A stretch of DNA of 64,000 nt from Candidatus Niyogibacteria bacterium. Lineage in GTDB: Bacteria; Patescibacteriota; Minisyncoccia; JACROR01. The stretch covers positions 11,907-75,906 of the forward strand of contig JACPLO010000001.1 in assembly GCA_016186495.1 (NCBI GenBank), in the 5' to 3' direction. Made by a program: the position numbers and the translations under genes. Below the pieces are notes generated by a model. It was not told where the DNA came from and did no database searches. It worked only from the letters and a program-made list of their open reading frames with translations. Below are positions 18,637 to 59,766 of the stretch, in pieces. Positions within the stretch are counted from its first letter, which is position 1. Each line of letters starts with the position of its first letter.

Positions 18637-18690
18637 AATGCTGGGAGGGAGATTTGAACTCCCACTCTCTCGCGAGAACTAGCTCCCTTG

Positions 18691-18799
18691 TCCCGTTAGA
18701 AGTGTCGGAGATGGGATTTGAACCCATACAGTCTTGCGACTACTAGCTCCTGAAGCTAGCGCGTCTGCCAATTCCGCCACTCCGACACTTCTAACGGGA
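18691..18799. repeat. palindromic element copy (13-bp perfect TIRs TCCCGTTAGAAGT / ACTTCTAACGGGA) whose cargo is the tRNA-Leu(CAG) gene
   Basis: Inverted repeats abut both ends of the tRNA acceptor stem; same CCCGTTAGAA core as repeats at 24261, 27370, 40571 and variant at 20556. Confidence 0.7.
18704..18786 (-). tRNA. tRNA-Leu (anticodon CAG)
   Basis: 83 nt read by eye: GTCGGAG TG GCG GAATTGGCAGA CGC G CTAGC TTCAGGA GCTAG [var arm TAGTCGCAAGACTGT] ATGGG TTCAAAT CCCAT CTCCGAC, discriminator A; no encoded CCA. Confidence 0.85.
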
Positions 18800-18849
18800 T
18801 GAACTAGCGCGTCTGCCAATTCCGCCATCCCAGCTTTTTCAACCGGAGA

Positions 18850-20553
18850 TTAATCCGTTAAAAATTTCCATACTTTTTTGGTATCAATATACCATTCATT
18901 TACTTGAGTAAAGCGATCTGAAGGAACGGTAATGTGGGAAATATCCATACCTTTTAAACGTTCAGGGAGAATGTATAAATAGTGCGGCGCATAAAGGAAG
19001 ATTGCCGGAATATCTTTTTGGACTTCTTTTTGGAAAGCGACGTAGTTTTTAGCGCGTTTTGCCGGATCGGCGATACTTCTCGCTTTCTCTAAAAGATCAT
19101 CCGCAGTGATGTTGGCATAAAGGGCGATATTTAAACCCGGATCGTTCCTTTGGGAAGAATGCCAGAAAGCGAACGGATCAGGATCAAATCCTGTTATTTC
19201 TCCGAAAAGAAGAGCATCGTAGTCCCGCGGCCGGATAATATTTTTTTCAAAATCGCCAATTTCAAATATTTTAACATCAGTTTTCACGCCGATGTCTTCC
19301 CACATTGTTTTTAAAAGTTCCGCGGTTTTGACCAATTCCGGCGCCATTGAAGTAGACAAAGAAAGGGTCAGAAGGATTGTTTCTTTTTTAATTTTCTTTT
19401 CCATTATTCCCGATTTTTCGTTTAATTTCCATCCTGATTTTTCAATCAGGATTTTGGCTTGTTCCGGGTCATAATCGTTGTTATTTTCTTCTTTGATAGA
19501 ACCAAGCGTGTCCGGCGGAATAGGATGGTCAATGGCCGATCCGTAACCGGCCAACGCTTCTTCAATAATTTTTCTTTTATCAACGGCCAGTTTCAGGATT
19601 TTTCTGACTGCGGCATCGGCCAGGATTTTATTCTTATTTTGATTTAAAAAAACGCCAAAAACGCGGGAAAGAGTCATTGTTTGAAGCCGGGATTCTTTTC
19701 TAAGAATAGCCGATATTTTTTGGGAAGAAACCGCTCCAATGCTGTCAATAATCCGATTTTCATAAGCCGCCAAGAGATCAGCTTCCGAGTTGTAGAATTT
19801 AAAAATTATCTTTTTTAAATAAGGTTTTTTTAAGGCGTAATCTTCAAAAGATTCCAAAGTGTAAGAATTGATGATTCCCGATGAATTCCGTGATATTTTT
19901 TTAACGCGGTAGGGGCCGGCGCCGATCGGTTCAATGTTAAATTGGCTTAAACTGATTTGTTCGGGCTTAAGGTCGGCCCATAAATGGTAAGGAAGGATTT
20001 CCAAAGTAGTATTTTCCAGAAACGGAGCGTAGGGTTTTTTGAGAATGAATTTAACGGCGCGGGAATTAATAATTTTCGTTTCCACTCCCTCCCAATTAGC
20101 TCTTTTCGGGCTTTTAGTAAAAGGATCTTGAGCAAGTTTGACGGTAAAAATAATATCTTGAGCGGTAATCGGCTGGCCGTCTGACCAGCGCAAATTTTCT
20201 TTCAGAAAAAAAGTATAAGTAAGATTGTCTTCGCTGATTTCATATTTTTCCGCTAATTCCGATTTTAATCCGCCTTGGCCGTCTGATTTTAAAAGGCCGG
20301 CGTAGATAAGTTCAGTCAGATCGTGGTCTGCTTCGGAGACGGCGATCAAAGGATTGATAAAACGAGGAAAACCGATGACTCCTTCGTAAAGGACGCCGCC
20401 GTCAACCGGCGTTTCAACGGCGATTCGGTCATTGATAATCATTGAAAGGCCGATTATTCCCGTAAAAAACAGCAAGGCGAAAAACGCAAAAGCGGCTTTT
20501 TCTTTGATATTCAGCGTGCGGATAATAAAGCGGATTTTGGTAAAAGACGGCAA
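18850..20553 (-). CDS. ABC transporter substrate-binding protein, family 5 (peptide/nickel type), orphan
   Basis: SBP_bac_5-like sequence; N-terminal signal anchor; ORF extends to 20670 but probable start is TTG at 20553 preceded by GGGG SD, leaving the tandem repeats in the 5' leader. Confidence 0.7.
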   Translation of the reverse strand: MPSFTKIRFIIRTLNIKEKAAFAFFALLFFTGIIGLSMIINDRIAVETPVDGGVLYEGVIGFPRFINPLIAVSEADHDLTELIYAGLLKSDGQGGLKSELAEKYEISEDNLTYTFFLKENLRWSDGQPITAQDIIFTVKLAQDPFTKSPKRANWEGVETKIINSRAVKFILKKPYAPFLENTTLEILPYHLWADLKPEQISLSQFNIEPIGAGPYRVKKISRNSSGIINSYTLESFEDYALKKPYLKKIIFKFYNSEADLLAAYENRIIDSIGAVSSQKISAILRKESRLQTMTLSRVFGVFLNQNKNKILADAAVRKILKLAVDKRKIIEEALAGYGSAIDHPIPPDTLGSIKEENNNDYDPEQAKILIEKSGWKLNEKSGIMEKKIKKETILLTLSLSTSMAPELVKTAELLKTMWEDIGVKTDVKIFEIGDFEKNIIRPRDYDALLFGEITGFDPDPFAFWHSSQRNDPGLNIALYANITADDLLEKARSIADPAKRAKNYVAFQKEVQKDIPAIFLYAPHYLYILPERLKGMDISHITVPSDRFTQVNEWYIDTKKVWKFLTD

Positions 20554-20555
20554 AT

Positions 20556-20633
20556 TTACCCCGTTAAATAGTTGCGAGGCGAATTTAACGGGGTTTACCC
20601 CGTTAAATAGTTGCGAGGCGAATTTAACGGGGT
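20556..20633. repeat. two tandem 39-bp units each containing palindrome CCCCGTTAAAT-N13-ATTTAACGGGG
   Basis: Units at 20559-20597 and 20598-20636 nearly identical; related to the CCCGTTAGAA palindromic family; would encode PVKFASQLFNGVN x2 if translated. Confidence 0.75.
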
Positions 20634-20695
20634 GAACGCGCTGCTTAAATAATGAGAATATTTTTTTCACAATGATTTTATGGTGATAACGGGAA

Positions 20696-22850: not shown

Positions 22851-23951
22851 ATGAAAGTTCTAAGCATTAGTTCGGATAGAAACATTTTTAACGAAAATTC
22901 TGAAGTCAGGCAGAGAACGATTGAATACGGCCGTTTGGCGGAAGAATTGCATATCATCGTCTTTACAAAACGGAAATTGGAAACAAATCCTAAAATTCAA
23001 ATTTCCGAAAATACTTTTTTTTATCCGACAGATTCATTTAGTCGATGGAGTTATATTTTTAACGCGGTAAAAATCGCCAAAAAAATAATTGGAAATTATC
23101 CTGATAAGTTTCTTGTCACAAGTCAGGATCCTTTTGAAACTGGATTGGCCGGCTGGCTAATCGCACGCCAGTTCAATTTTCCGCTTCAGCTTCAAATTCA
23201 CACTGATTTTCTCTCTTCGTATTTTCGGCGCGAATCTTTTTTGAATAAAATCCGCGTTTGGCTCGCTAAATTTTTGATTTTTCGCGCCGCTTGTCTCCGC
23301 GTCGTTTCCGAAAGGATAAAAAAATCATTGGCGGCCATCGGTTATCCTTTAAATTTCGTAACAGTTTTGCCGATTTTCGTTGATGTTGGAAAAATAAAAA
23401 ACGCGCCGATTAAAACCGATCTCCGGCAAAAATATCCGCAATTTGATTTCATTATTTTGACGGCGTCGCGCCTGACGCGCGAGAAAAATATCGGCTTAGC
23501 CGTTGAAGTGATGGCTGAAATTATAAAAGAATATCCTCAAACCGGCTTGATTATTGTCGGCAACGGACCGGAAGAGCTTGATTTAAAATTTAAAATTAAA
23601 AATTTAAAGTTGGAAGAAAATGTTATTCTTGAAGATTGGACGGAGGATCTCGCGTCATATTATAAAACCGCGGATTTGTTTCTCCTTACTTCCAATTACG
23701 AAGGATACGGCCGGACTCTTATTGAAGCTGTTTTCTCGGGATGCGGCGCGATTTCCGCCAATGTCGGCATTGCCGATGAAATTTTGGCTAAAGAAAATAT
23801 TTTTGAGCCGGACGATAAAAAGGCCCTTGTGGAAAAAATAACAAAAGCAATGAAAGGCGAACTTCTTCAAATTAAGTTTAGGGCAGAAATACGGACAAAG
23901 GACCAGTATTTAGAAAAATATAAAAAATCATGGGAAACATGCAGCTATTAA
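22851..23951 (+). CDS. glycosyltransferase family 1 (GT4-type)
   Basis: 366 aa; C-terminal GT-B motif EGYGRTLIEAVFSGCGAIS. Confidence 0.8.
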   Translation: MKVLSISSDRNIFNENSEVRQRTIEYGRLAEELHIIVFTKRKLETNPKIQISENTFFYPTDSFSRWSYIFNAVKIAKKIIGNYPDKFLVTSQDPFETGLAGWLIARQFNFPLQLQIHTDFLSSYFRRESFLNKIRVWLAKFLIFRAACLRVVSERIKKSLAAIGYPLNFVTVLPIFVDVGKIKNAPIKTDLRQKYPQFDFIILTASRLTREKNIGLAVEVMAEIIKEYPQTGLIIVGNGPEELDLKFKIKNLKLEENVILEDWTEDLASYYKTADLFLLTSNYEGYGRTLIEAVFSGCGAISANVGIADEILAKENIFEPDDKKALVEKITKAMKGELLQIKFRAEIRTKDQYLEKYKKSWETCSY

Positions 23952-25075
23952 TTTTGACTCAAAAAATAGATATAAATGACGATAATCTTGGTTTTTTTGT
24001 GCGTTGGGTTGAAGAATTCGCTAAAAATGTTGAAGAGGTTTTTGTAATCGCGAATTTCACCGGCGAACGCCATTTGCCGGACAAGGTAAAAATTTTTTCT
24101 TTGGGAAAAGAAAAAGGATTCGGAAGAATCAGGCGGTATTTTAATTTTTTCCGTTATCTTTTTGAGATTTTGCCGAAATCGGACGCGGTGTTCGTCCATA
24201 TGATTCCCGTTTGGGTGGTGGCGGGCTGGCCGCTTTATAAAATTTTCAGAAAAAAAGTTTATCCCGTTACATTTTTAAAACCCCGCGGTCTTGCCGCAGG
24301 GGTATCACAACAATATTTTAACATTTTTGCGTGGTTTAATGCTCTGTTGAAATGTAACGGGATTTATTTATGGTACACGCATAAGTCCGTCACTTTTTCT
24401 TTGCGGATGGCGGAAAAAATAGTTGAAAAAATATTTACCGCCTCGCGCGAAAGTTTTCGCTTGCCGTCCAAAAAGGCGGAAATTTTAGGCCATGGCATTG
24501 ATATAGAAAAATTTAAACCGGCGGTTAATTATCAATCATCCGCCAGCTATCAAATTATTACGGCGGGCCGAATCGCGCCGAGCAAGAATTTGGATATTTT
24601 GATTGAGACCGCGGAAATTTTAAAAAAACAGAAGATGAATTTTGAGATGAAAATTGCCGGCGCACCGATCACCGCGGCTGACGACCAATATTTTAAAAAG
24701 CTGAAAGATTTAATTGTAAAAAATAATTTAAAAGATACCATCAGATTCAGCGGCGCGATTCCTTACGGCGAAATTGAAAAATTTTATCAAAAAGGGGATT
24801 TATTCGTGAATTTAAGCGCCACCGGTAGCTTGGATAAGTCTGTTCTTGAAGCGATGGCGTGCGGCGTGAATGTTCTTGTTTCAAACGAGGCCTTTTCTAA
24901 TATCCTGCCGGAGGAAAATTTTATTAAAAATTCAACAGTCGGACAAATTACTGAAAGAATAAAATATTTTATGGATAATCGGGATTCGGCGAATAAAACG
25001 ATTTTGCGCGAAATAATCGTTAAGAATCATAATCTGAAAAATTTAATCAAGAAATTGGTTGAAAATATAAATTGA
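23930..25075 (+). CDS. glycosyltransferase family 1 (GT4-type) carrying an in-frame palindromic element
   Basis: 381 aa; GSLDKSVLEAMACGVNVLVSN; residues ~111-145 encoded by repeat 24261-24363. Confidence 0.8.
   Translation: MGNMQLLILTQKIDINDDNLGFFVRWVEEFAKNVEEVFVIANFTGERHLPDKVKIFSLGKEKGFGRIRRYFNFFRYLFEILPKSDAVFVHMIPVWVVAGWPLYKIFRKKVYPVTFLKPRGLAAGVSQQYFNIFAWFNALLKCNGIYLWYTHKSVTFSLRMAEKIVEKIFTASRESFRLPSKKAEILGHGIDIEKFKPAVNYQSSASYQIITAGRIAPSKNLDILIETAEILKKQKMNFEMKIAGAPITAADDQYFKKLKDLIVKNNLKDTIRFSGAIPYGEIEKFYQKGDLFVNLSATGSLDKSVLEAMACGVNVLVSNEAFSNILPEENFIKNSTVGQITERIKYFMDNRDSANKTILREIIVKNHNLKNLIKKLVENIN
24261..24363. repeat. palindromic element copy inside GT1 CDS (14-bp TIRs ATCCCGTTACATTT / AAATGTAACGGGAT, 75-bp core)
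   Basis: Perfect 14-bp inverted repeats; translated in-frame as YPVT...KCNGI within the protein. Confidence 0.7.
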
Positions 25076-27308: not shown

Positions 27309-27369
27309 ATAATTTAATCTCTTTCTCTTTTTATTTTTTTCTGTTATCATTGCTCTTAAGTTTGAATTT

Positions 27370-27449
27370 ACCCCGTTAGAAAGTTATTTTTAAACTATAT
27401 GAATAAGATTTATTTCTGGATGTTTACGAAGCGAGCTTTCTAACGGGGT
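27370..27449. repeat. intergenic palindromic element copy (14-bp TIRs ACCCCGTTAGAAAG / CTTTCTAACGGGGT, 52-bp core)
   Basis: Perfect inverted repeats with the CCCGTTAGAA core. Confidence 0.75.
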
Positions 27450-27491
27450 TTAGAACATTAATAATCTTTTTATTATAAATAAGGAGGCAGG

Positions 27492-39103: not shown

Positions 39104-39400
39104 ATGTTTGGTTTTGATATAAATTTTTGGCTTATCTTGGGCTTTTTTGGGCAATTCCTGTTTTTTATGAGATTTTTTGTCCAATGGATCGCTTCCGAAA
39201 AAAGAAGGGAAAGTTTTTTCCCGGTTGCTTTTTGGTATTTTAGCATCGGCGGCGGCGTTATTCTTTTAATTTACGCCGTGTCCATTAAAGATCCGGTTTT
39301 TATTTTAGGGCAGGGCGCCGGATTGTTAATTTACATCAGAAATTTAGTTTTGATTCGGAAAAAAAATATTTTAAATAAATCTCACGCTCCGCAAATATGA
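39104..39400 (+). CDS. lipid-A-disaccharide synthase N-terminal (LAB_N) domain membrane protein
   Basis: 98 aa, 3 TM; RFFVQWIASEK...FWYFSIGGGVILLIYAVSIKDPVFILGQGAGLLIYIRNL matches LAB_N pattern as recalled. Confidence 0.5.
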   Translation: MFGFDINFWLILGFFGQFLFFMRFFVQWIASEKRRESFFPVAFWYFSIGGGVILLIYAVSIKDPVFILGQGAGLLIYIRNLVLIRKKNILNKSHAPQI

Positions 39401-41166
39401 ATTTATTAAGTTTAAAAAACATATTTAGCGCGGATTTTTTGGAGAAATACGGCCTAGTTTTTATTCTCGCGCTTTTTGTCGCGTTTGGCATAGTCGGAAT
39501 TTTTTATAATTATTCAATTTCCAATACGATTGGCGAAGAGTCTATTTTGATGGCGGCCACCTTAAAAATGATCGCCGAATTATCATTAAGGCCGAATTAT
39601 CCGACTATGTATCATATGCCGTTCGGGACATATTTTTATTTGCCGTTTTTTATTGTTTTGCTTGTTTTTTTAAGGCTTTCCGGCTTATTTGCCAGCTTAG
39701 AGGAATTGAAAGTTTTTGGAATAACAGATTATGAAAAATTATTGCCGATGGCAAGATTTATTTCAATATTTTTAGGAGTAGCCTCGGTATATATGGTTTA
39801 TAGAATTTGTGAAAAATTATTCAATAATAAATTTATTTCTCTAGTCGCTTCATTTTTGCTTGCCACCAATCTAATATTCGTGCAGATGTCCCATTTCGGC
39901 AAAGTTTGGATTATCCAGATATTTATTGTTCTGTTAACTTTTTATTTTATTGTTGCTTTATATCAAAAAGAACGGCCCGGATTTAAGGATTATTTTTATC
40001 CCGCGCTTTTGACGGCAATTTCTTTCGGCGTCCATTTTATCGGCATATTGATTTATCTGCCATTTTTAACGGCGCATTATTTGAAAAATAAAGAAAAGAA
40101 ATTTAGGGAGATTTTTATAACAAACAGGAATTTTTGGCTCTCTAATTTAGTGATCGCGATTATATTATTGTTTATTTTTTATTTAAACCCTTATGGATTT
40201 GCCAATTACGGCCTGCGATCCGTGGCGGCGGCCGCGGCTATTATTCAGGAGAGCGCCGGCGCCAGCGGCGGTTATGATTTTTGGTTAATGTTCAGCAATT
40301 ACGGAAAAGTATTGTTTGAAAACGGTCCGGCTCTGACCATAATATTTGTTTTCAGTTTAATTCCCTTATTTTTGCGAAGGAGAGATTTATTTTTTATATT
40401 CAACTCTTTTATATTCGGCTACTATATTATTATAGGCCCGATCCTCGGCCCGACAATCGGAATTAACGGCCGAGGATTTTATATCTCGCCTATTATACCG
40501 TTTATGGCTGTTGTGTCCGCTTTTGGTATTTATGTGTTTTATAAAAGTGATTTATTAGGCAAAAGGATAAATCCCGTTAGAAATATTATTTCTAACGGGA
40601 TAAAGATTTTCTTACTGGCTTTGGTTTTTCTTTTTTCCGCGTACATTCCGATTTTATGGAATTATAAGCTGATTCAGCCCAGCGCCTGGATTTTGGCTAA
40701 AGATTGGATTTATAATAATCTACCGTCGGGAGTAAGCATAATCAATCTCAATACCGAGCTTCCCATTAATGAAAATAAGGAGTCTGTGGAAGATACCAGA
40801 GTTTATACGCCGAATTTTTTTACAAAAAAACAGGATTATTTGTCGTCAGTCGGCGATAATCAATATCCCAAGCCCAATTATTACGTTTTAAAGTTCGCCG
40901 ATTATAGAGAGGGTATTCCTAAGGCCGTTTTAGATAGAGGTTTTGATTATATGGTTATAGAATGGTGGGATCAGGCGAGATATGAAAAAACTATGCAAGA
41001 TGTCCGTCAACTTAATTTAGAAGAAATAAATTTAATTAAAATATTTCCGGCTGGCGCCTCTTCCACTACCTTAAATATGGATATGGAAAATATAAAGAAT
41101 CCCCTTATTAATTTGCGAAAAATAGACCATACGGGACCGGTTATCGCTATTTATAAATTAAAATAA
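39397..41166 (+). CDS. GT-C fold membrane glycosyltransferase-like protein (ArnT/PMT_2-like)
   Basis: 589 aa, >10 TM; loop motif IGEESILMAATLKMIAE; contains in-frame palindrome at 40571-40601. Confidence 0.45.
   Translation: MNLLSLKNIFSADFLEKYGLVFILALFVAFGIVGIFYNYSISNTIGEESILMAATLKMIAELSLRPNYPTMYHMPFGTYFYLPFFIVLLVFLRLSGLFASLEELKVFGITDYEKLLPMARFISIFLGVASVYMVYRICEKLFNNKFISLVASFLLATNLIFVQMSHFGKVWIIQIFIVLLTFYFIVALYQKERPGFKDYFYPALLTAISFGVHFIGILIYLPFLTAHYLKNKEKKFREIFITNRNFWLSNLVIAIILLFIFYLNPYGFANYGLRSVAAAAAIIQESAGASGGYDFWLMFSNYGKVLFENGPALTIIFVFSLIPLFLRRRDLFFIFNSFIFGYYIIIGPILGPTIGINGRGFYISPIIPFMAVVSAFGIYVFYKSDLLGKRINPVRNIISNGIKIFLLALVFLFSAYIPILWNYKLIQPSAWILAKDWIYNNLPSGVSIINLNTELPINENKESVEDTRVYTPNFFTKKQDYLSSVGDNQYPKPNYYVLKFADYREGIPKAVLDRGFDYMVIEWWDQARYEKTMQDVRQLNLEEINLIKIFPAGASSTTLNMDMENIKNPLINLRKIDHTGPVIAIYKLK
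40571..40601. repeat. 31-bp perfect palindrome ATCCCGTTAGAAATA-T-TATTTCTAACGGGAT inside CDS
   Basis: 15-bp arms with single-base centre; translated as NPVRNIISNGI; minimal member of CCCGTTAGAA family. Confidence 0.8.
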
Positions 41167-53528: not shown

Positions 53529-54722
53529 ATGAAAATTGTTTTTATTACCTCTAAATTAAATTTTACTGGAGCGGGAGGTTCGGTTGAGGAGATTGATATT
53601 ATTGCCAGAACTTTAATGAAGCTGGGAAATGAGGTCGTGGTGATCACTGCCTTTTCGCATTTCAATGATATTAACCAAATTCTGCCATATAAGGTCGTTG
53701 AAGAACGGATTTCGTCAGGCCGTATGCTGGGCATTCAGAGGGGCGTTTTTGAGCTTTTAAAAAAATATGAAGATCAGGCGGATTTTTTTCATGTTGACCA
53801 CCTCTTTTTATATGGGGCGGGATTTTATCGGAGGATTGGCGGTAAGATTCCGATCGTTTTGTTGTTTAATCAGTTTATGACCTGTTTGCCCGATATTGCT
53901 CCCACGCTTTTTCCCAGAAAGAAAAGTTTTTTTGTCAGGTTAAAACAAAAAATCCGTTTTTATGTTGAAAAATATATTGGCGTGCCGATAGCTAACGGCA
54001 TTGATATTTTTGCGATAGTCAGCCCGCCGCTCAAAAAAATGTACGAAGATTTTGGCATACGAGGACGGCTTTGCAACATTGTGTTGGGCGATCCGACTGA
54101 TTTTCGGCAAATTATGACAGAGGGCGGGACAGAAAAAGATTCATATATTAAGAGAAATAAGCGCCAAGGCTCTTTTATCATTTTTTATTCCAGCAGAATG
54201 GTTTCGGGTAAAGGATTTGATTTGCTTTTAGACGGATTTTCAAAAGTGAAAAATAAAGATAATTTCAGGTTGATTTTGGGCGGTTCCGGTCCGGAAGAGA
54301 AAATAATTCATAAGATGGCGTTTGATTTAAATCTTGAAAAATACGTCACTTTTCCCGGCTGGGTCTCCAGAAAACAACTTTTTAGCTATTATAAGAATGC
54401 CGATATATTTATTCAGGTTGGATGGAGGCCGGAAGGGACATCAATTTCTTTGCAATATGCTATGGCTTTTGGGATTCCTTCAATATTGCCCGGCGGAGGA
54501 GGGCTTGAATGGGTCGCGAAAGACAGCGCGATTTATGTAAAGAACGGCGATCCTTATGATTTGGCGGAGAAGATAGAAAAGCTCGCCGGTGATTATGATT
54601 TAAGAGCAACACTTTCGCGTAATTGTTATAGGCGCATATCGGATGACGAAATGAATTATGAGATGAATATAAGAAGATTATTTGAAAAAATGAAAGAGCT
54701 CGTGAATTTAAAAACCCCATAA
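53529..54722 (+). CDS. glycosyltransferase family 1 (GT4-type)
   Basis: 397 aa; GT-B C-terminal domain (EGTSISLQYAMAFGIPSI). Confidence 0.8.
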   Translation: MKIVFITSKLNFTGAGGSVEEIDIIARTLMKLGNEVVVITAFSHFNDINQILPYKVVEERISSGRMLGIQRGVFELLKKYEDQADFFHVDHLFLYGAGFYRRIGGKIPIVLLFNQFMTCLPDIAPTLFPRKKSFFVRLKQKIRFYVEKYIGVPIANGIDIFAIVSPPLKKMYEDFGIRGRLCNIVLGDPTDFRQIMTEGGTEKDSYIKRNKRQGSFIIFYSSRMVSGKGFDLLLDGFSKVKNKDNFRLILGGSGPEEKIIHKMAFDLNLEKYVTFPGWVSRKQLFSYYKNADIFIQVGWRPEGTSISLQYAMAFGIPSILPGGGGLEWVAKDSAIYVKNGDPYDLAEKIEKLAGDYDLRATLSRNCYRRISDDEMNYEMNIRRLFEKMKELVNLKTP

Positions 54723-54748
54723 TAAATATTTATTATGGGGTTTTTTTT
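54711..54748. terminator. bidirectional intrinsic terminator between convergent genes
   Basis: Perfect palindrome AAACCCCATAATAAATA/TATTTATTATGGGGTTT flanked by A-run and T-run. Confidence 0.7.
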
Positions 54749-56792: not shown

Positions 56793-56977
56793 TTTTTCTC
56801 CTTTCGTTTTTTGATTTTTAAAGTCCTTAATTTTAAATAATTCATAGCATAAAAAATGCGCGGTGACAATATTTCGTCAAGAAGGAAATAGTGGAAATGA
56901 GTGTGAAGATGAACGAAATACATACCGAATTTTAACATAATTCGTTGCGGTGTGAAAAAAATACCTAAAATAAATAA

Positions 56978-57021
56978 AAAGAGGGGTTGAGTTTTTAAAT
57001 CTGAATAACTCAACCCCTTTT
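56978..57021. terminator. intrinsic terminator downstream of flotillin-like gene (minus strand), palindromic/bidirectional
   Basis: AAAAGAGGGGTTGAGTT...AACTCAACCCCTTTT with flanking A/T runs. Confidence 0.7.
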
Positions 57022-57026
57022 ATTTA

Positions 57027-58385
57027 TTATTTTGATGACGATGTTTTTTTAACAATCGTCATATCAAGGCCAAGGTCTTTGAGAACCTTGGCAGTAAATA
57101 GATCTATAAGAATGTTGGCTTCATTTCCTTTGGCGCCAGCATTAGCATTGTTTATTTGAACTTCTGGCACCCATTTCTGTTTTGAAAGCTCTTCAAAAGC
57201 TTTGCTCATGATGTTCTCATAAGTTGTAAGCTTTTGTTCAAGAGCTCCATCAGCTTGAAGTACCATCTGTTTGCGTTTTGCATCGCCTTCTCCCCGAAGG
57301 ATCTGCTCCATTTTATATTCAGTCGCTGCCAGTTTCTTCTGTTCAGCTTCTAATTTTACTTGTTGAGCTACTTCTACAAGCTGTGTGGCGTTTATTACCG
57401 CCACTTCTTTTATTTTTTGAGCGTCAACAACCGCCTGAACTTTTTCAACTTCCTTGCCATATTTCGCCGTCATTACGTTTGCTTGTCCTTGAGCTTCTGC
57501 CGTAATCTTTATTTGTTCCGCTTTTTCAGCCTCGGCTTTAGCTTGAACTATAGCCATCAGCGCTTCTCTTTTTCTCTGAATTTGTTCAAGTGTTTTTGGC
57601 TCATATGTCCAGTTAACAATCTGACATTGGGTTACCATAACCCCATATTCTTTAAATGGACTTTTACCATGCATAGGTTCGTTTTGATCTTCATCTTTAT
57701 ACATAATAGTGGCTCTTTGGACTTCTTCTGTTCTGCCGGATTCTCCGGAAACTTTTAACGTAACTAATTTGGTTTTATAAGGGCCATTTATCATCTGATC
57801 TTCGGCCCAACGTTGGAATTTTTCTTTTGCCGTGGTATAACTTTCCTCGCTTGACATAAGCGAGGCAGTCAAATTCATAACATTTTGAGCAGTTACTTTG
57901 ATTAATGATTCAACAGTATGGTCATAGCTGCGAAAAGCGTTATGAATTTTTAAATCATTTCCACTATCAGCAGGCATTCTAAAACGAATTTTCCCGTAAA
58001 TATGGCCAGTGCCTCCGTCATTGTAACGAACCGGAAGCGCCTGACTGTTAGTTGAACCTAGTAGTTCTTCATCGGAAGGATTAATAACAGACTGCTGAAT
58101 AGTTATTTTTTTGCCATCAGCAGTCGTCATTTCCACTGGCTGCATATCCTGATCAACGGGAATTATGAACGAATATGTTCCCTCTTTTTTATACTCTGTG
58201 ATTTTTCCGCCATATTGCCCAAACATTCCCGGGTTATAAAAAATATCAAGTGTGCCGGTCACCGGCATCTGTCTGATCTTATAATATCCCGCGAAGTTGG
58301 TTTCAACAATTGATTTCGTTAAAATCCCACACAAAACTACAACAGCAAAAAATCCTATACTTAATATCTGTTTTTTCGTCATCAT
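57027..58385 (-). CDS. SPFH/band-7 (flotillin-like) membrane protein
   Basis: 452 aa; N-terminal TM, long Ala/Glu/Lys/Gln-rich coiled-coil (AKAEAEKAEQIKITAEAQG...). Confidence 0.5.
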   Translation of the reverse strand: MMTKKQILSIGFFAVVVLCGILTKSIVETNFAGYYKIRQMPVTGTLDIFYNPGMFGQYGGKITEYKKEGTYSFIIPVDQDMQPVEMTTADGKKITIQQSVINPSDEELLGSTNSQALPVRYNDGGTGHIYGKIRFRMPADSGNDLKIHNAFRSYDHTVESLIKVTAQNVMNLTASLMSSEESYTTAKEKFQRWAEDQMINGPYKTKLVTLKVSGESGRTEEVQRATIMYKDEDQNEPMHGKSPFKEYGVMVTQCQIVNWTYEPKTLEQIQRKREALMAIVQAKAEAEKAEQIKITAEAQGQANVMTAKYGKEVEKVQAVVDAQKIKEVAVINATQLVEVAQQVKLEAEQKKLAATEYKMEQILRGEGDAKRKQMVLQADGALEQKLTTYENIMSKAFEELSKQKWVPEVQINNANAGAKGNEANILIDLFTAKVLKDLGLDMTIVKKTSSSK

Positions 58386-58784: not shown

Positions 58785-59736
58785 ATGGCTATATCTATGT
58801 CAAAAACAATTAAAGAAGAGCGTTTACGATGGGTACTGCCCCTCATTCAAAAAGAGATAAGGTTAGTTGATGCGGCAAAAGTGTGTCCGTATGGTAAACG
58901 AAGCCTCGAACGATGGGTTGTTGCATATCGCGAAGGCGGCGAGAAGGCCCTGGAACCGAAGTCAACAGAACCGAAGCGTTATCGAACCGAAACCCTGATC
59001 TGGCTCAAAGAGAAGATCCTCGCCATCCGAACCGAAACCAAGAAATGCGCCCGGGAGATTCATTGGCAGCTCGAGAAAGAAGGAATTAAGATTGATACGC
59101 GCACAATCGGAAAAATCTTGAAAAAAGAGGGGCTCGTGCGGAAGTACCGGGTGAAAAGAACCAAATACAAATATTTCAAAGCTGAACTTAAATCCGGAGA
59201 ACTGGTCGAAATCGATGTGAAATATGTACCCGGAATGATCGCCGGACAGCAATATTTTCAATATACGGCGGTGGATCGGGCATCCAGATGGCGACACCTG
59301 GAAATATATGACGAGCAGATAAACCTCCATAGTGTTTTGTTTCTTGAAACGGTGATCGGTCGAGCGCCATTTACGATTCAAGCCATCAAAACAGACAATC
59401 ATGCTACGTTTACGAATTACTACACCGGAACCAATAAAAGAAGCGACCTTCTGGTAAAGTCGCTGCATGCTCTGGATGAGGAGTGCCGCAAACGCGGCAT
59501 CAAAACACTACTTGATCGATCCGGGCAAGCCGGCGCAGAACGGAACCGTAGAACGGAGCCACCGCGAAGACCAGGAAAAATTCTACGAAAGAAATAAATT
59601 CAGAAATTTAAAAGAGTTGGAAAGAAAAATTAAAATGTGGAATAATGAATACAATAATTTAGAGCACTGTTGCCTGAATGGATTATCACCTAACGAATTC
59701 CTTAGGTTGTCAGAAGTGCAAAATGTCCGTGGTTAA
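58785..59736 (+). mobile_element. IS481-family transposase gene interrupted by a frameshift (pseudogene or sequencing error)
   Basis: N-terminal HTH, rve core (DVKYV...TDNHATF); C-terminal LIDPGKPAQNGTVERSHR lies in +1 frame (ORF 59467-59736); shift maps to the A-run in GGCATCAAAACACTAC (~59497-59505); GC-richer than the rest of the window. Confidence 0.7.
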
Positions 59737-59766
59737 AACAGTGTTTTAACCACGGACATTTTCAAT
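59722..59766 (+). terminator. perfect 19-bp-arm palindrome / terminator at transposase 3' end
   Basis: AATGTCCGTGGTTAAAACA|GTGTTTTAACCACGGACATT followed by TTCAATT. Confidence 0.6.

Follow-up and report, generated by a model that had tools for sequence, protein, structure and literature searches.

A dispersed family of very small mobile hairpins, with a minimal copy translated within a glycosyltransferase gene of Candidatus Niyogibacteria

Introduction

How does a perfect 31-bp palindrome come to lie within the coding sequence (CDS) of a membrane glycosyltransferase, and what kind of DNA is it? The question is raised by a 64,000-nucleotide stretch from Candidatus Niyogibacteria (contig JACPLO010000001.1 of assembly GCA_016186495.1), referred to throughout as the window. 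Its positions 40571-40601 are ATCCCGTTAGAAATA-T-TATTTCTAACGGGAT, a perfect 15+1+15 palindrome, exactly as a sequence-only reading of the window had claimed. The palindrome, termed E6 here, is contained in the open reading frame (ORF) 39397-41166 (+) and is read through in translation as NPVRNIISNGI. The same reading held that such a palindrome would hardly arise by chance, regarded it as the smallest form, arms without cargo, of a family with further copies in the window, and suspected a constraint on the peptide that it encodes.

Here we describe E6 as a DNA insertion, compile the family of tiny hairpin mobile elements to which it belongs and consider how these elements may move. The family is previously undescribed; exact-sequence and keyword searches found no description of it in the literature searched, and Rfam gave no match at any copy, either at the gathering threshold or at E<=5.

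E6 is an insertion in a glycosyltransferase gene

The protein encoded by ORF 39397-41166 contains PMT_2, a domain of GT-C type membrane glycosyltransferases, and matches at 100% identity a 'glycosyltransferase family 39 protein' (GT39) that the database lists for a Candidatus Niyogibacteria metagenome-assembled genome (MAG) on a contig of 167 kb; this protein, insert included, is recorded from four contigs. In an alignment of 20 GT39 sequences exactly the 11 residues are wholly absent from 14 of the 19 homologues. The closest orthologue (L139, 71% protein identity) has an empty site, AAGAGAATAAAGATT, which reads AAG AGA ATA AAG ATT where the window reads AGG A-TAAA-[T..A]-TAAA-G ATT. The single TAAA of the empty site is present twice in the window, at 40568-40571 and 40601-40604, and the outermost A and T of the 31-mer are part of these flanking repeats. 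E6 proper is the segment 40572-40600, T-CCCGTTAGAAAT-ATT-ATTTCTAACGGG-A, that is, a T, 27 nt forming a 13-bp stem with a 3-nt loop, and an A (coordinates of the copies and their flanks are given without strand, E2 below excepted). E6 is a DNA insertion at TAAA in the GT39 gene; its net addition of 33 bp (11 codons) keeps the frame, and translation yields 11 extra residues in a loop that precedes a membrane helix.

The suspicion that the palindrome is beyond chance proved justified on three counts that all agree. The window has 11 occurrences of the 15-mer arm, at up to three mismatches, where 3.9 are expected, and none of 100 shuffles reaches 11; palindromes whose arms measure 12 nt or more and whose spacer does not exceed 3 nt number nine, as against 0-2 in 30 first-order Markov simulations; and the E6 hairpin folds with -13.7 kcal/mol as DNA and -18.9 kcal/mol as RNA (z ~ -5 against shuffles). 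Neither arm is self-complementary, and both ends pair into one stem. An intrinsic terminator was considered and rejected, since the stem is followed inside the CDS by AAAGATTTTC, with no T-run, and the flanks at other copies vary.

Orthologues record a more complicated history at the same position. Decayed, non-palindromic relics lie at exactly the E6 site in L001, L002 and L140 (half-deleted in some orthologues), and at the protein level P0003 and P0004 have a degenerate 11-residue segment there and P0007 and P0008 a partial one. These four relics are as decayed as neutral sequence, while E6 is a perfect consensus; clean empty sites are found in the sister P0002 and in P0005/P0006. Either the site is a hot spot with repeated insertions, or some lines have precisely lost an old copy that was renewed here, with three events on the tree each way.

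Six further copies in the window

The window holds seven copies at six loci, a density of about one per 9 kb. The kinship between E6 and other inverted repeats in the window, which the sequence-only reading had proposed, is borne out: the copies at 136-255, 18691-18799, 20559-20593 and 20598-20632, 24262-24362 and 27371-27448 have a common stem foot, (C/T)CCCGTTA ... TAACGGG(A/G). Beyond the foot the arms continue differently from copy to copy (GAAAT, GAAGT, GAAAG, AAT, CATTT), yet they are always complementary, perfectly so over 13-20 bp in all window copies and likewise in the 152 copies counted elsewhere.

E1 (136-255) lies upstream of leuS, has a loop of about 94 nt and one G:T mismatch in its stem, and is flanked by TGAA at 132-135 and 256-259; its final A doubles as the first base of the leuS start codon (255-257). 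In other genomes, too, many copies directly precede an ATG. As a side observation, the original ATGAA of the leuS start is duplicated upstream of E1, opening a short frame that ends within E1. E5 (27371-27448) is intergenic, with TTTA at 27367-27370 and 27449-27452.

E4 (24262-24362), with the arm variant CCCGTTACATTT/AAATGTAACGGG, stands in frame (34 codons) in the GT4 gene 23930-25075 (+) between TTTA at 24258-24261 and TTTA at 24363-24366. The segment, of 34-35 residues, is missing from nine homologues, and the close relative L149 has the empty site GTTTATTTATGG where the window has G-TTTA-[T..A]-TTTA-TTTATGG.

E3 (20559-20632) consists of tandem 35-nt copies at 20559-20593 and 20598-20632 with TTTA between them, lies in ORF 18850-20670 (-) and is read on the minus strand as HPVKFASQLFNGV-NPVKFASQLFNGV. 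There is one copy in L148 and L149 and none in L150 and L151, all relatives of the window genome, and the tandem is found in the window only; with its flanks (20555-20636) it is a 39-bp tandem duplication of hairpin plus TAAA, hosted by an SBP gene, at the N-terminus in L148/L149. The foot at this site is the compensated CCTG/CAGG in L149, the half-changed CCCG/CAGG in L148 and CCCG/CGGG in the window, which shows step by step how the two arms co-vary. The three loci within coding sequences (E3, E4, E6) are multiples of three when the flank is included, and are read in the frame CCC-GTT ... AAC-GGG.

A copy that carries a tRNA gene

E2 (18687-18799, minus strand; hairpin 18691-18799) has a complete tRNA-Leu(CAG) gene, 18702-18786 (-), as its loop, and its site is the anticodon loop of a resident tRNA-Leu(CAG) gene at about 18640-18835 (-). 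Read along the minus strand, the order is 5' half of the resident tRNA-Leu, arm, complete tRNA-Leu(CAG), arm, 3' half. The syntenic loci of L148, L149 and L150 each have just one tRNA-Leu(CAG), which is uninterrupted and shares its acceptor stem with the resident gene; they are 93% (over 5.8 kb), 88% and 84-85% (two syntenic segments) identical to the window, respectively. BLAST breakpoints at 18686/18800 define 18687-18799 as the insert. In the sense of the tRNA, the target ...CTAGC-TTCA|GGA-GCTAG... has become ...CTAG-TTCA-[T-arm-tRNA-arm-A]-CAAG-GGA-GCTAG..., with no duplication, four bases gained (CAAG; CTTG on the plus strand, 18687-18690) and one base lost (C31); E2 has no flanking repeat. 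The incoming and resident tRNAs are identical over positions 8-43 and differ in acceptor stem, variable arm and T stem. E2 thus destroyed one tRNA-Leu(CAG) gene and supplied another, and the insertion is judged recent because close relatives have the ordinary uninterrupted gene. L148 lacks both E2 and the second E3 copy, and it is because relatives of about 90% identity are without two window copies that the family can be called active in this lineage.

A metagenome scan with the arm and the D-arm of tRNA-Leu found the arm-tRNA module, with a different inner tRNA, in seven loci; at the genome loci no tRNA lies inside the arms, E2 of the window excepted. In L141-L144 the module occupies the same TTCA|GGA position and is accompanied by CAAG; in L145 and L147 it follows GATTCA in the D-arm and is accompanied by CAGG, and removal of the hairpin plus CAGG restores a perfect tRNA (L147). 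In all five tRNA-bearing contexts, among them E2, the left flank is TTCA, the right flank is CA(A/G)G and the orientation is the same. Perfect acceptor pairing is retained by the halves of the interrupted tRNA in the window as well as in L145 and L147. A nested or split tRNA that functions, with the outer gene as a tRNA-Leu(CAA) with an intron, was rejected: no excision gave a canonical anticodon loop, and the relatives are uninterrupted.

Separately, the tRNA-Leu genes or fragments of L141 (7,400-8,200 of the locus) and L142-L144 hold further short hairpin inserts, namely a GC-rich 19-37-nt hairpin after GGCAGAC and a CCCCGTA...TACGGGG variant in the D-loop. The same contigs have a partial tandem duplication of the interrupted tRNA-Leu gene.

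The family in other genomes and its anatomy

The pattern CCCGTTAGAA-(1-61 nt)-TTCTAACGGG was scanned for in contigs taken at one genome per species, and at least 120 stretches in other genomes matched, against roughly 30 chance matches on our own estimate. Hosts among the matches listed belong to many classes of Patescibacteria and to Omnitrophota, Planctomycetota, Desulfobacterota/Syntrophia, Nitrospirota and Gammaproteobacteria; the assemblies stem from many projects and were made with many assemblers, and 16 stretches of viral contigs match as well. The family is dispersed across phyla and active in this lineage.

Its anatomy was counted on 152 non-redundant copies. The conserved part is the foot of the stem, Y-CCCGTTA...TAACGGG-R, the base beside CCCG being Y and paired with R opposite in 95% of copies; loops range from 1 to more than 100 nt and whole units from 23 to about 135 bp. 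In 132 of the 152 the stem is longer than the fixed 10 nt, most often by exactly 2 nt, and compensated double changes are found within the arms (GAT/ATC, ACAA/TTGT, GAG/CTC). The term terminal inverted repeats (TIRs), used for the arms in the sequence-only reading, is therefore only partly apt: they act as one hairpin stem with compensated changes and not as two independent protein-binding ends. The description of E6 as a minimal, arms-only form fares better, as the 27-nt size is the commonest single size (13/152). Loops are mostly unrelated between copies, in some of which further copies are nested, although several loop subfamilies are met again from genome to genome (a GC-rich 66-nt two-hairpin loop, a 38-nt and a 30-nt one); the sole difference within the orthologous pair L071/L097 is a loop indel. 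Beside these stands a 27-nt minimal copy (L074, 800-826) whose flanks continue as an inverted repeat for 11 of 12 further bases (CATTCCCGCTTG / CAAGCGGGAATC), and which is possibly nested in the centre of another palindromic element.

Outside the Y/R pair a 4-nt direct repeat is perfect in 75 of the 152 copies, where 8.2 are expected (maximum 18 in 1000 shuffles), and the flanks match at three or more of the four positions in 100, against 32 expected. The repeat is mostly T-N-N-A (TTTA, TGAA, TTCA, TAAA, TTGA), within a symmetric target pattern R-YNNR-Y; palindromic tetranucleotides (TTAA, TATA) account for only one of the 75, where we would estimate about a quarter, and the commonest left flanks include TTTAC and ATTGAT. 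The flanking tetranucleotide showed no preference with respect to the coding strand (TAAA 5, TTTA 5). A flanking repeat is missing from E2, from E3 and from 56 of 165 copies; 20 of these 56, including 27-nt minimal copies in unrelated genes, have CAAG or CAGG on one side. Half of the GC-rich subfamily (5/10, in different genomes) is flanked by TTGA, oriented alike with respect to the loop, and TCAA is the repeat of no copy, and in the 38-nt subfamily the repeat varies by copy (TTCA, TTTA, TTTA).

Fate of copies inside genes

About a fifth of copies lie within ORFs, defined as having at least 60 codons of ORF on both sides, and the genes concerned include the housekeeping genes dnaX, fusA, polA, proB and dnaK. 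Nearly all such copies are multiples of three and open (22/23 in one count, 25/26 in another), and of 56 copies whose length is no multiple of three 53 lie outside ORFs, in-silico deletion restoring an ORF in two marginal cases only. Copies in genes persist only if they are in frame, and those out of frame are evidently purged. Since copies in ORFs are in frame and out-of-frame copies stand outside genes, the elements stay in the mRNA and are translated rather than spliced; an archaeal-type bulge-helix-bulge intron and a ribosome bypass with take-off and landing repeats were rejected on the same grounds.

The P-V and N-G reading to which attention had been drawn holds at all three in-CDS loci of the window, and the P-V frame is used by 23 of 26 in-ORF copies elsewhere; the special constraint on the peptide is not needed. 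One of the three frames of the arm has a stop (CGT-TAG), and the second is closed by TAA or TGA when the flanking tetranucleotide is TAAA or TGAA and also needs the rarer TNN codons at the target, limits that would by themselves account for the P-V reading.

How the family may move

Behind the DNA insertion, recent activity, in-frame survival and cross-phylum dispersal described above we infer the following chemistry, to which we give somewhat better than an even chance: the family would be a non-autonomous mobile hairpin moved by a single-strand, hairpin-guided route of the IS200/IS605 type. Both ends of the element pair into a single hairpin with a conserved foot, the rest of the stem being free to vary as long as it stays complementary, and the loop can hold anything from 1 nt to a whole tRNA gene. 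The element would have no function for the host and would be mobilised in trans by an enzyme, encoded outside the window, that recognises the folded hairpin on single-stranded DNA. Insertion would take place 3' of a T-N-N-A(Y) tetranucleotide in one orientation, and the 3' tetranucleotide, usually equal to the target, would be carried by the element in the IS200/IS605 (HUH) manner, rather than arise by staggered double-strand cut-and-paste. The arms might stay symmetrical because a stem is required, or else through template switching in the quasi-palindrome, a process that could keep arms symmetrical under this model and under the one considered next.

The main competitor is a classical MITE (miniature inverted-repeat transposable element), which we regard as possible and as distinctly less probable. 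Here a DDE transposase encoded elsewhere binds 13-bp TIRs on double-stranded DNA, and a 4-bp staggered cut at TNNA duplicates the target; arms-only copies arise by internal deletion, symmetry by template switching, and copies without repeat by later mutation or by recombination between copies. Several observations that fit this explanation weigh against the hairpin route: the perfect 4-nt repeat of about half the copies, when IS200/IS605 elements make none; the empty sites of E4 and E6, which hold exactly one tetranucleotide, as a staggered double-strand cut gives; and the repeat that differs among copies of the 38-nt subfamily, which suits target duplication better than a fixed tail. The symmetric target pattern also agrees with a MITE. 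Three more points tell against the hairpin route. Known IS200/IS605 ends are two separate subterminal hairpins, not one formed from both ends; neither the window nor about 150 loci yielded a Y1/HUH gene or any other transposase candidate bearing these ends; and a perfect E6 among four orthologues with decayed relics does not follow from it. The hairpin route is favoured all the same because of the compensated stems, the units as small as 23 nt and the repeat-free, one-orientation junctions of tRNA-bearing and CARG-tailed copies, and further because a subfamily keeps its flank in fixed orientation, the flank is of T-N-N-A-Y type, palindromic tetranucleotides are avoided and absence is patchy and scar-free. 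TTAC and TTGAT, present in the commonest left flanks, are the targets of IS608 and ISDra2. A MITE is hard to reconcile with the very recent E2, whose empty site is known and which has added CAAG without any duplication, with the invariable TTCA...CA(A/G)G of the tRNA-bearing subfamily, with the TTGA shared in one orientation by half of the GC-rich copies, with the single palindromic tetranucleotide among 75 repeats, or with compensated changes inside arms. A transpososome on a 23-29-bp double-stranded unit is doubtful, and no autonomous partner was found in the window or at the roughly 150 loci.

The remaining explanations fare worse. It is very improbable that the short palindromes are scars, in which a larger transposon left both termini and the target repeat behind, as P elements do: the stem extension ends sharply about 2 nt past the core in 73 of 152 copies, as fixed internal cleavage would give, and the arms-only size is the commonest, but identical or nearly identical short units (the 38-, 30- and 66-nt subfamilies) stand at different sites and in different genomes, copies occur in the essential dnaK, fusA, polA and proB, where a full transposon would be lethal, E3 was tandem-duplicated as hairpin plus tetranucleotide, and a long element was found at none of the orthologous sites examined. 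Slightly less probable still is a functional RNA hairpin, acting in processing, splicing, bypass or regulation, with the interrupted tRNA-Leu rescued by removal of the insert. Such a role would suit a stem that is the same on either transcribed strand, an E1 mismatch that is G:U-compatible on the sense strand and the perfect acceptor pairing of the interrupted tRNA halves. Copies in ORFs, however, are almost always in frame and open, and hence stay in the mRNA; recency accounts for the interrupted tRNA of the window, as relatives 84-93% identical are uninterrupted and C31 is already lost; orthologous copies decay; Rfam has no match at either threshold; and no T-run follows the E6 stem. A chance palindrome or assembly artefact, which the origin of the sequence in a MAG might suggest, can practically be dismissed, given the arm-count and Markov statistics, the four contigs with the same protein and insert, the many projects and assemblers behind the family and the decayed relics at the same site in orthologues.

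Candidate enzymes and neighbouring genes

In search of an autonomous copy, arms without a partner, distant arm pairs whose flanks match and neighbouring proteins that recur were checked at about 150 loci of up to 8 kb, and only housekeeping genes and combined small copies were found; beside about 120 loci stand housekeeping genes that are unrelated. Of the ORFs in the window 40 were scanned; they belong to housekeeping and glycosylation, with no Y1 (TnpA) gene in the 64 kb and with an IS481-like rve pseudogene as the only transposase-like gene (58785-59597, with palindrome to 59762; HTH_28, rve and HTH_32, frameshifted C-terminus). Its 3' end runs into another perfect palindrome, of 21+1+21 nt (59720-59762, arms TGTTTTAACCACGGACA, TG..CA ends), a single copy in the window; transposase and 43-bp palindrome were rejected as the source of the family, as the ends differ (TG..CA) and no sequence is shared. 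To our knowledge, none of the site architectures of Tn3, IS1380, IS5, IS630, IS91 and the serine and tyrosine recombinases fits all features.

Two observations lie apart from the family. Intergenic stem-loops at 54710-54745 (AAAAACCCCATAATAAATA/TATTTATTATGGGGTTTTT) and 56967-57033 (a 30-nt imperfect pair around GAGGGGTTGAG), both flanked by A/T runs, look like ordinary, possibly bidirectional, terminators. In L151, a large serine recombinase gene (52-1580; Resolvase, Recombinase, Zn_ribbon_recom) adjoins tRNA-Met and probably marks an integrated element unrelated to the E6 family.

Significance

A bolder reading, less probable than not, would see in the family the trace of an unrecognised cross-phylum system, in which a single hairpin, from about 23 nt up and with the foot YCCCGTTA, would be moved on one strand by a hairpin-specific enzyme with its cargo in the loop; its tRNA-Leu(CAG) version may insert at TTCA of resident genes and replace them, so that the host becomes dependent on it. 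If this is true, a widespread class of very small mobile DNA exists in lineages with tiny genomes, such as Patescibacteria and Omnitrophota, that are thought to be transposon-poor. The tRNA-bearing copies are a case of a mobile element that replaces the gene it disrupts. Conservation of the foot across phyla implies a conserved enzyme, and the mixture of repeat-bearing and repeat-free junctions provides a handle on its chemistry. Extra peptide segments in housekeeping proteins are a source of indels and of annotation and alignment artefacts in MAGs, and strains in groundwater metagenomes could be told apart by the copies they have or lack.

Comparison with known systems

Among systems that resemble only parts of the family, the integron attC site is likewise a hairpin of variable length defined by its structure, with a short conserved foot box containing GTT/AAC. 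It was rejected as an identity for the family, since the order of the boxes is reversed (GTTAGAA 5' and TTCTAAC 3', as against RYYYAAC...GTTRRRY), extrahelical bases are missing, and the copies are single and scattered, also in genes, rather than in cassette arrays. The coding palindromes of nematomorph mitochondria (PMC6649704) are also perfect inverted repeats translated with the protein, yet they reach 284 bp, are organellar and form no dispersed family of common sequence. The Correia, ERIC, RUP and Nezha MITEs share with the family TIRs, a short flanking repeat, a non-coding nature, many dispersed copies and mobilisation in trans; they differ in being 100-300 bp long, in having an interior specific to each family and in having a parent insertion sequence that is known or has been inferred, whereas the interiors here are unrelated and some junctions lack a repeat.

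In mechanism, the closest systems may be IS200/IS605-derived or REP-like hairpin elements, that is, IS200/IS605 with PATEs, and the repetitive extragenic palindromes (REP)/REPINs moved by the Y1 HUH protein RAYT (PMC3733652). The likeness lies in a hairpin with compensated stem changes, in insertion beside a T-rich tetra- or pentanucleotide of TTAC/TTGAT type, in the oriented insertion without duplication of the tRNA-bearing subfamily and in a patchy presence and absence compatible with precise loss. In IS200/IS605 elements the two ends differ, a separate hairpin forms at each and no repeat is made, whereas here both ends combine into one hairpin and a perfect 4-nt repeat flanks half of the copies; REP sequences are extragenic and lineage-specific with a GTAG/CGTC tag, whereas the foot YCCCGTTA is without such a tag and about a fifth of copies are in ORFs.

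In function, the closest analogues are the Rickettsia palindromic elements (RPE) and other in-frame MITEs. RPE and the QMITEs of Coxiella (PMC5896051; see also the review PMC10969869) are, like the family described here, short palindromic non-coding mobile repeats that are found both between genes and, translated in frame, within them. As far as their descriptions can be compared, RPE are about 100-150 bp long, have a conserved interior and are confined to one genus, whereas the present family conserves only its foot, has minimal units of 23-29 bp and extends over at least six phyla.

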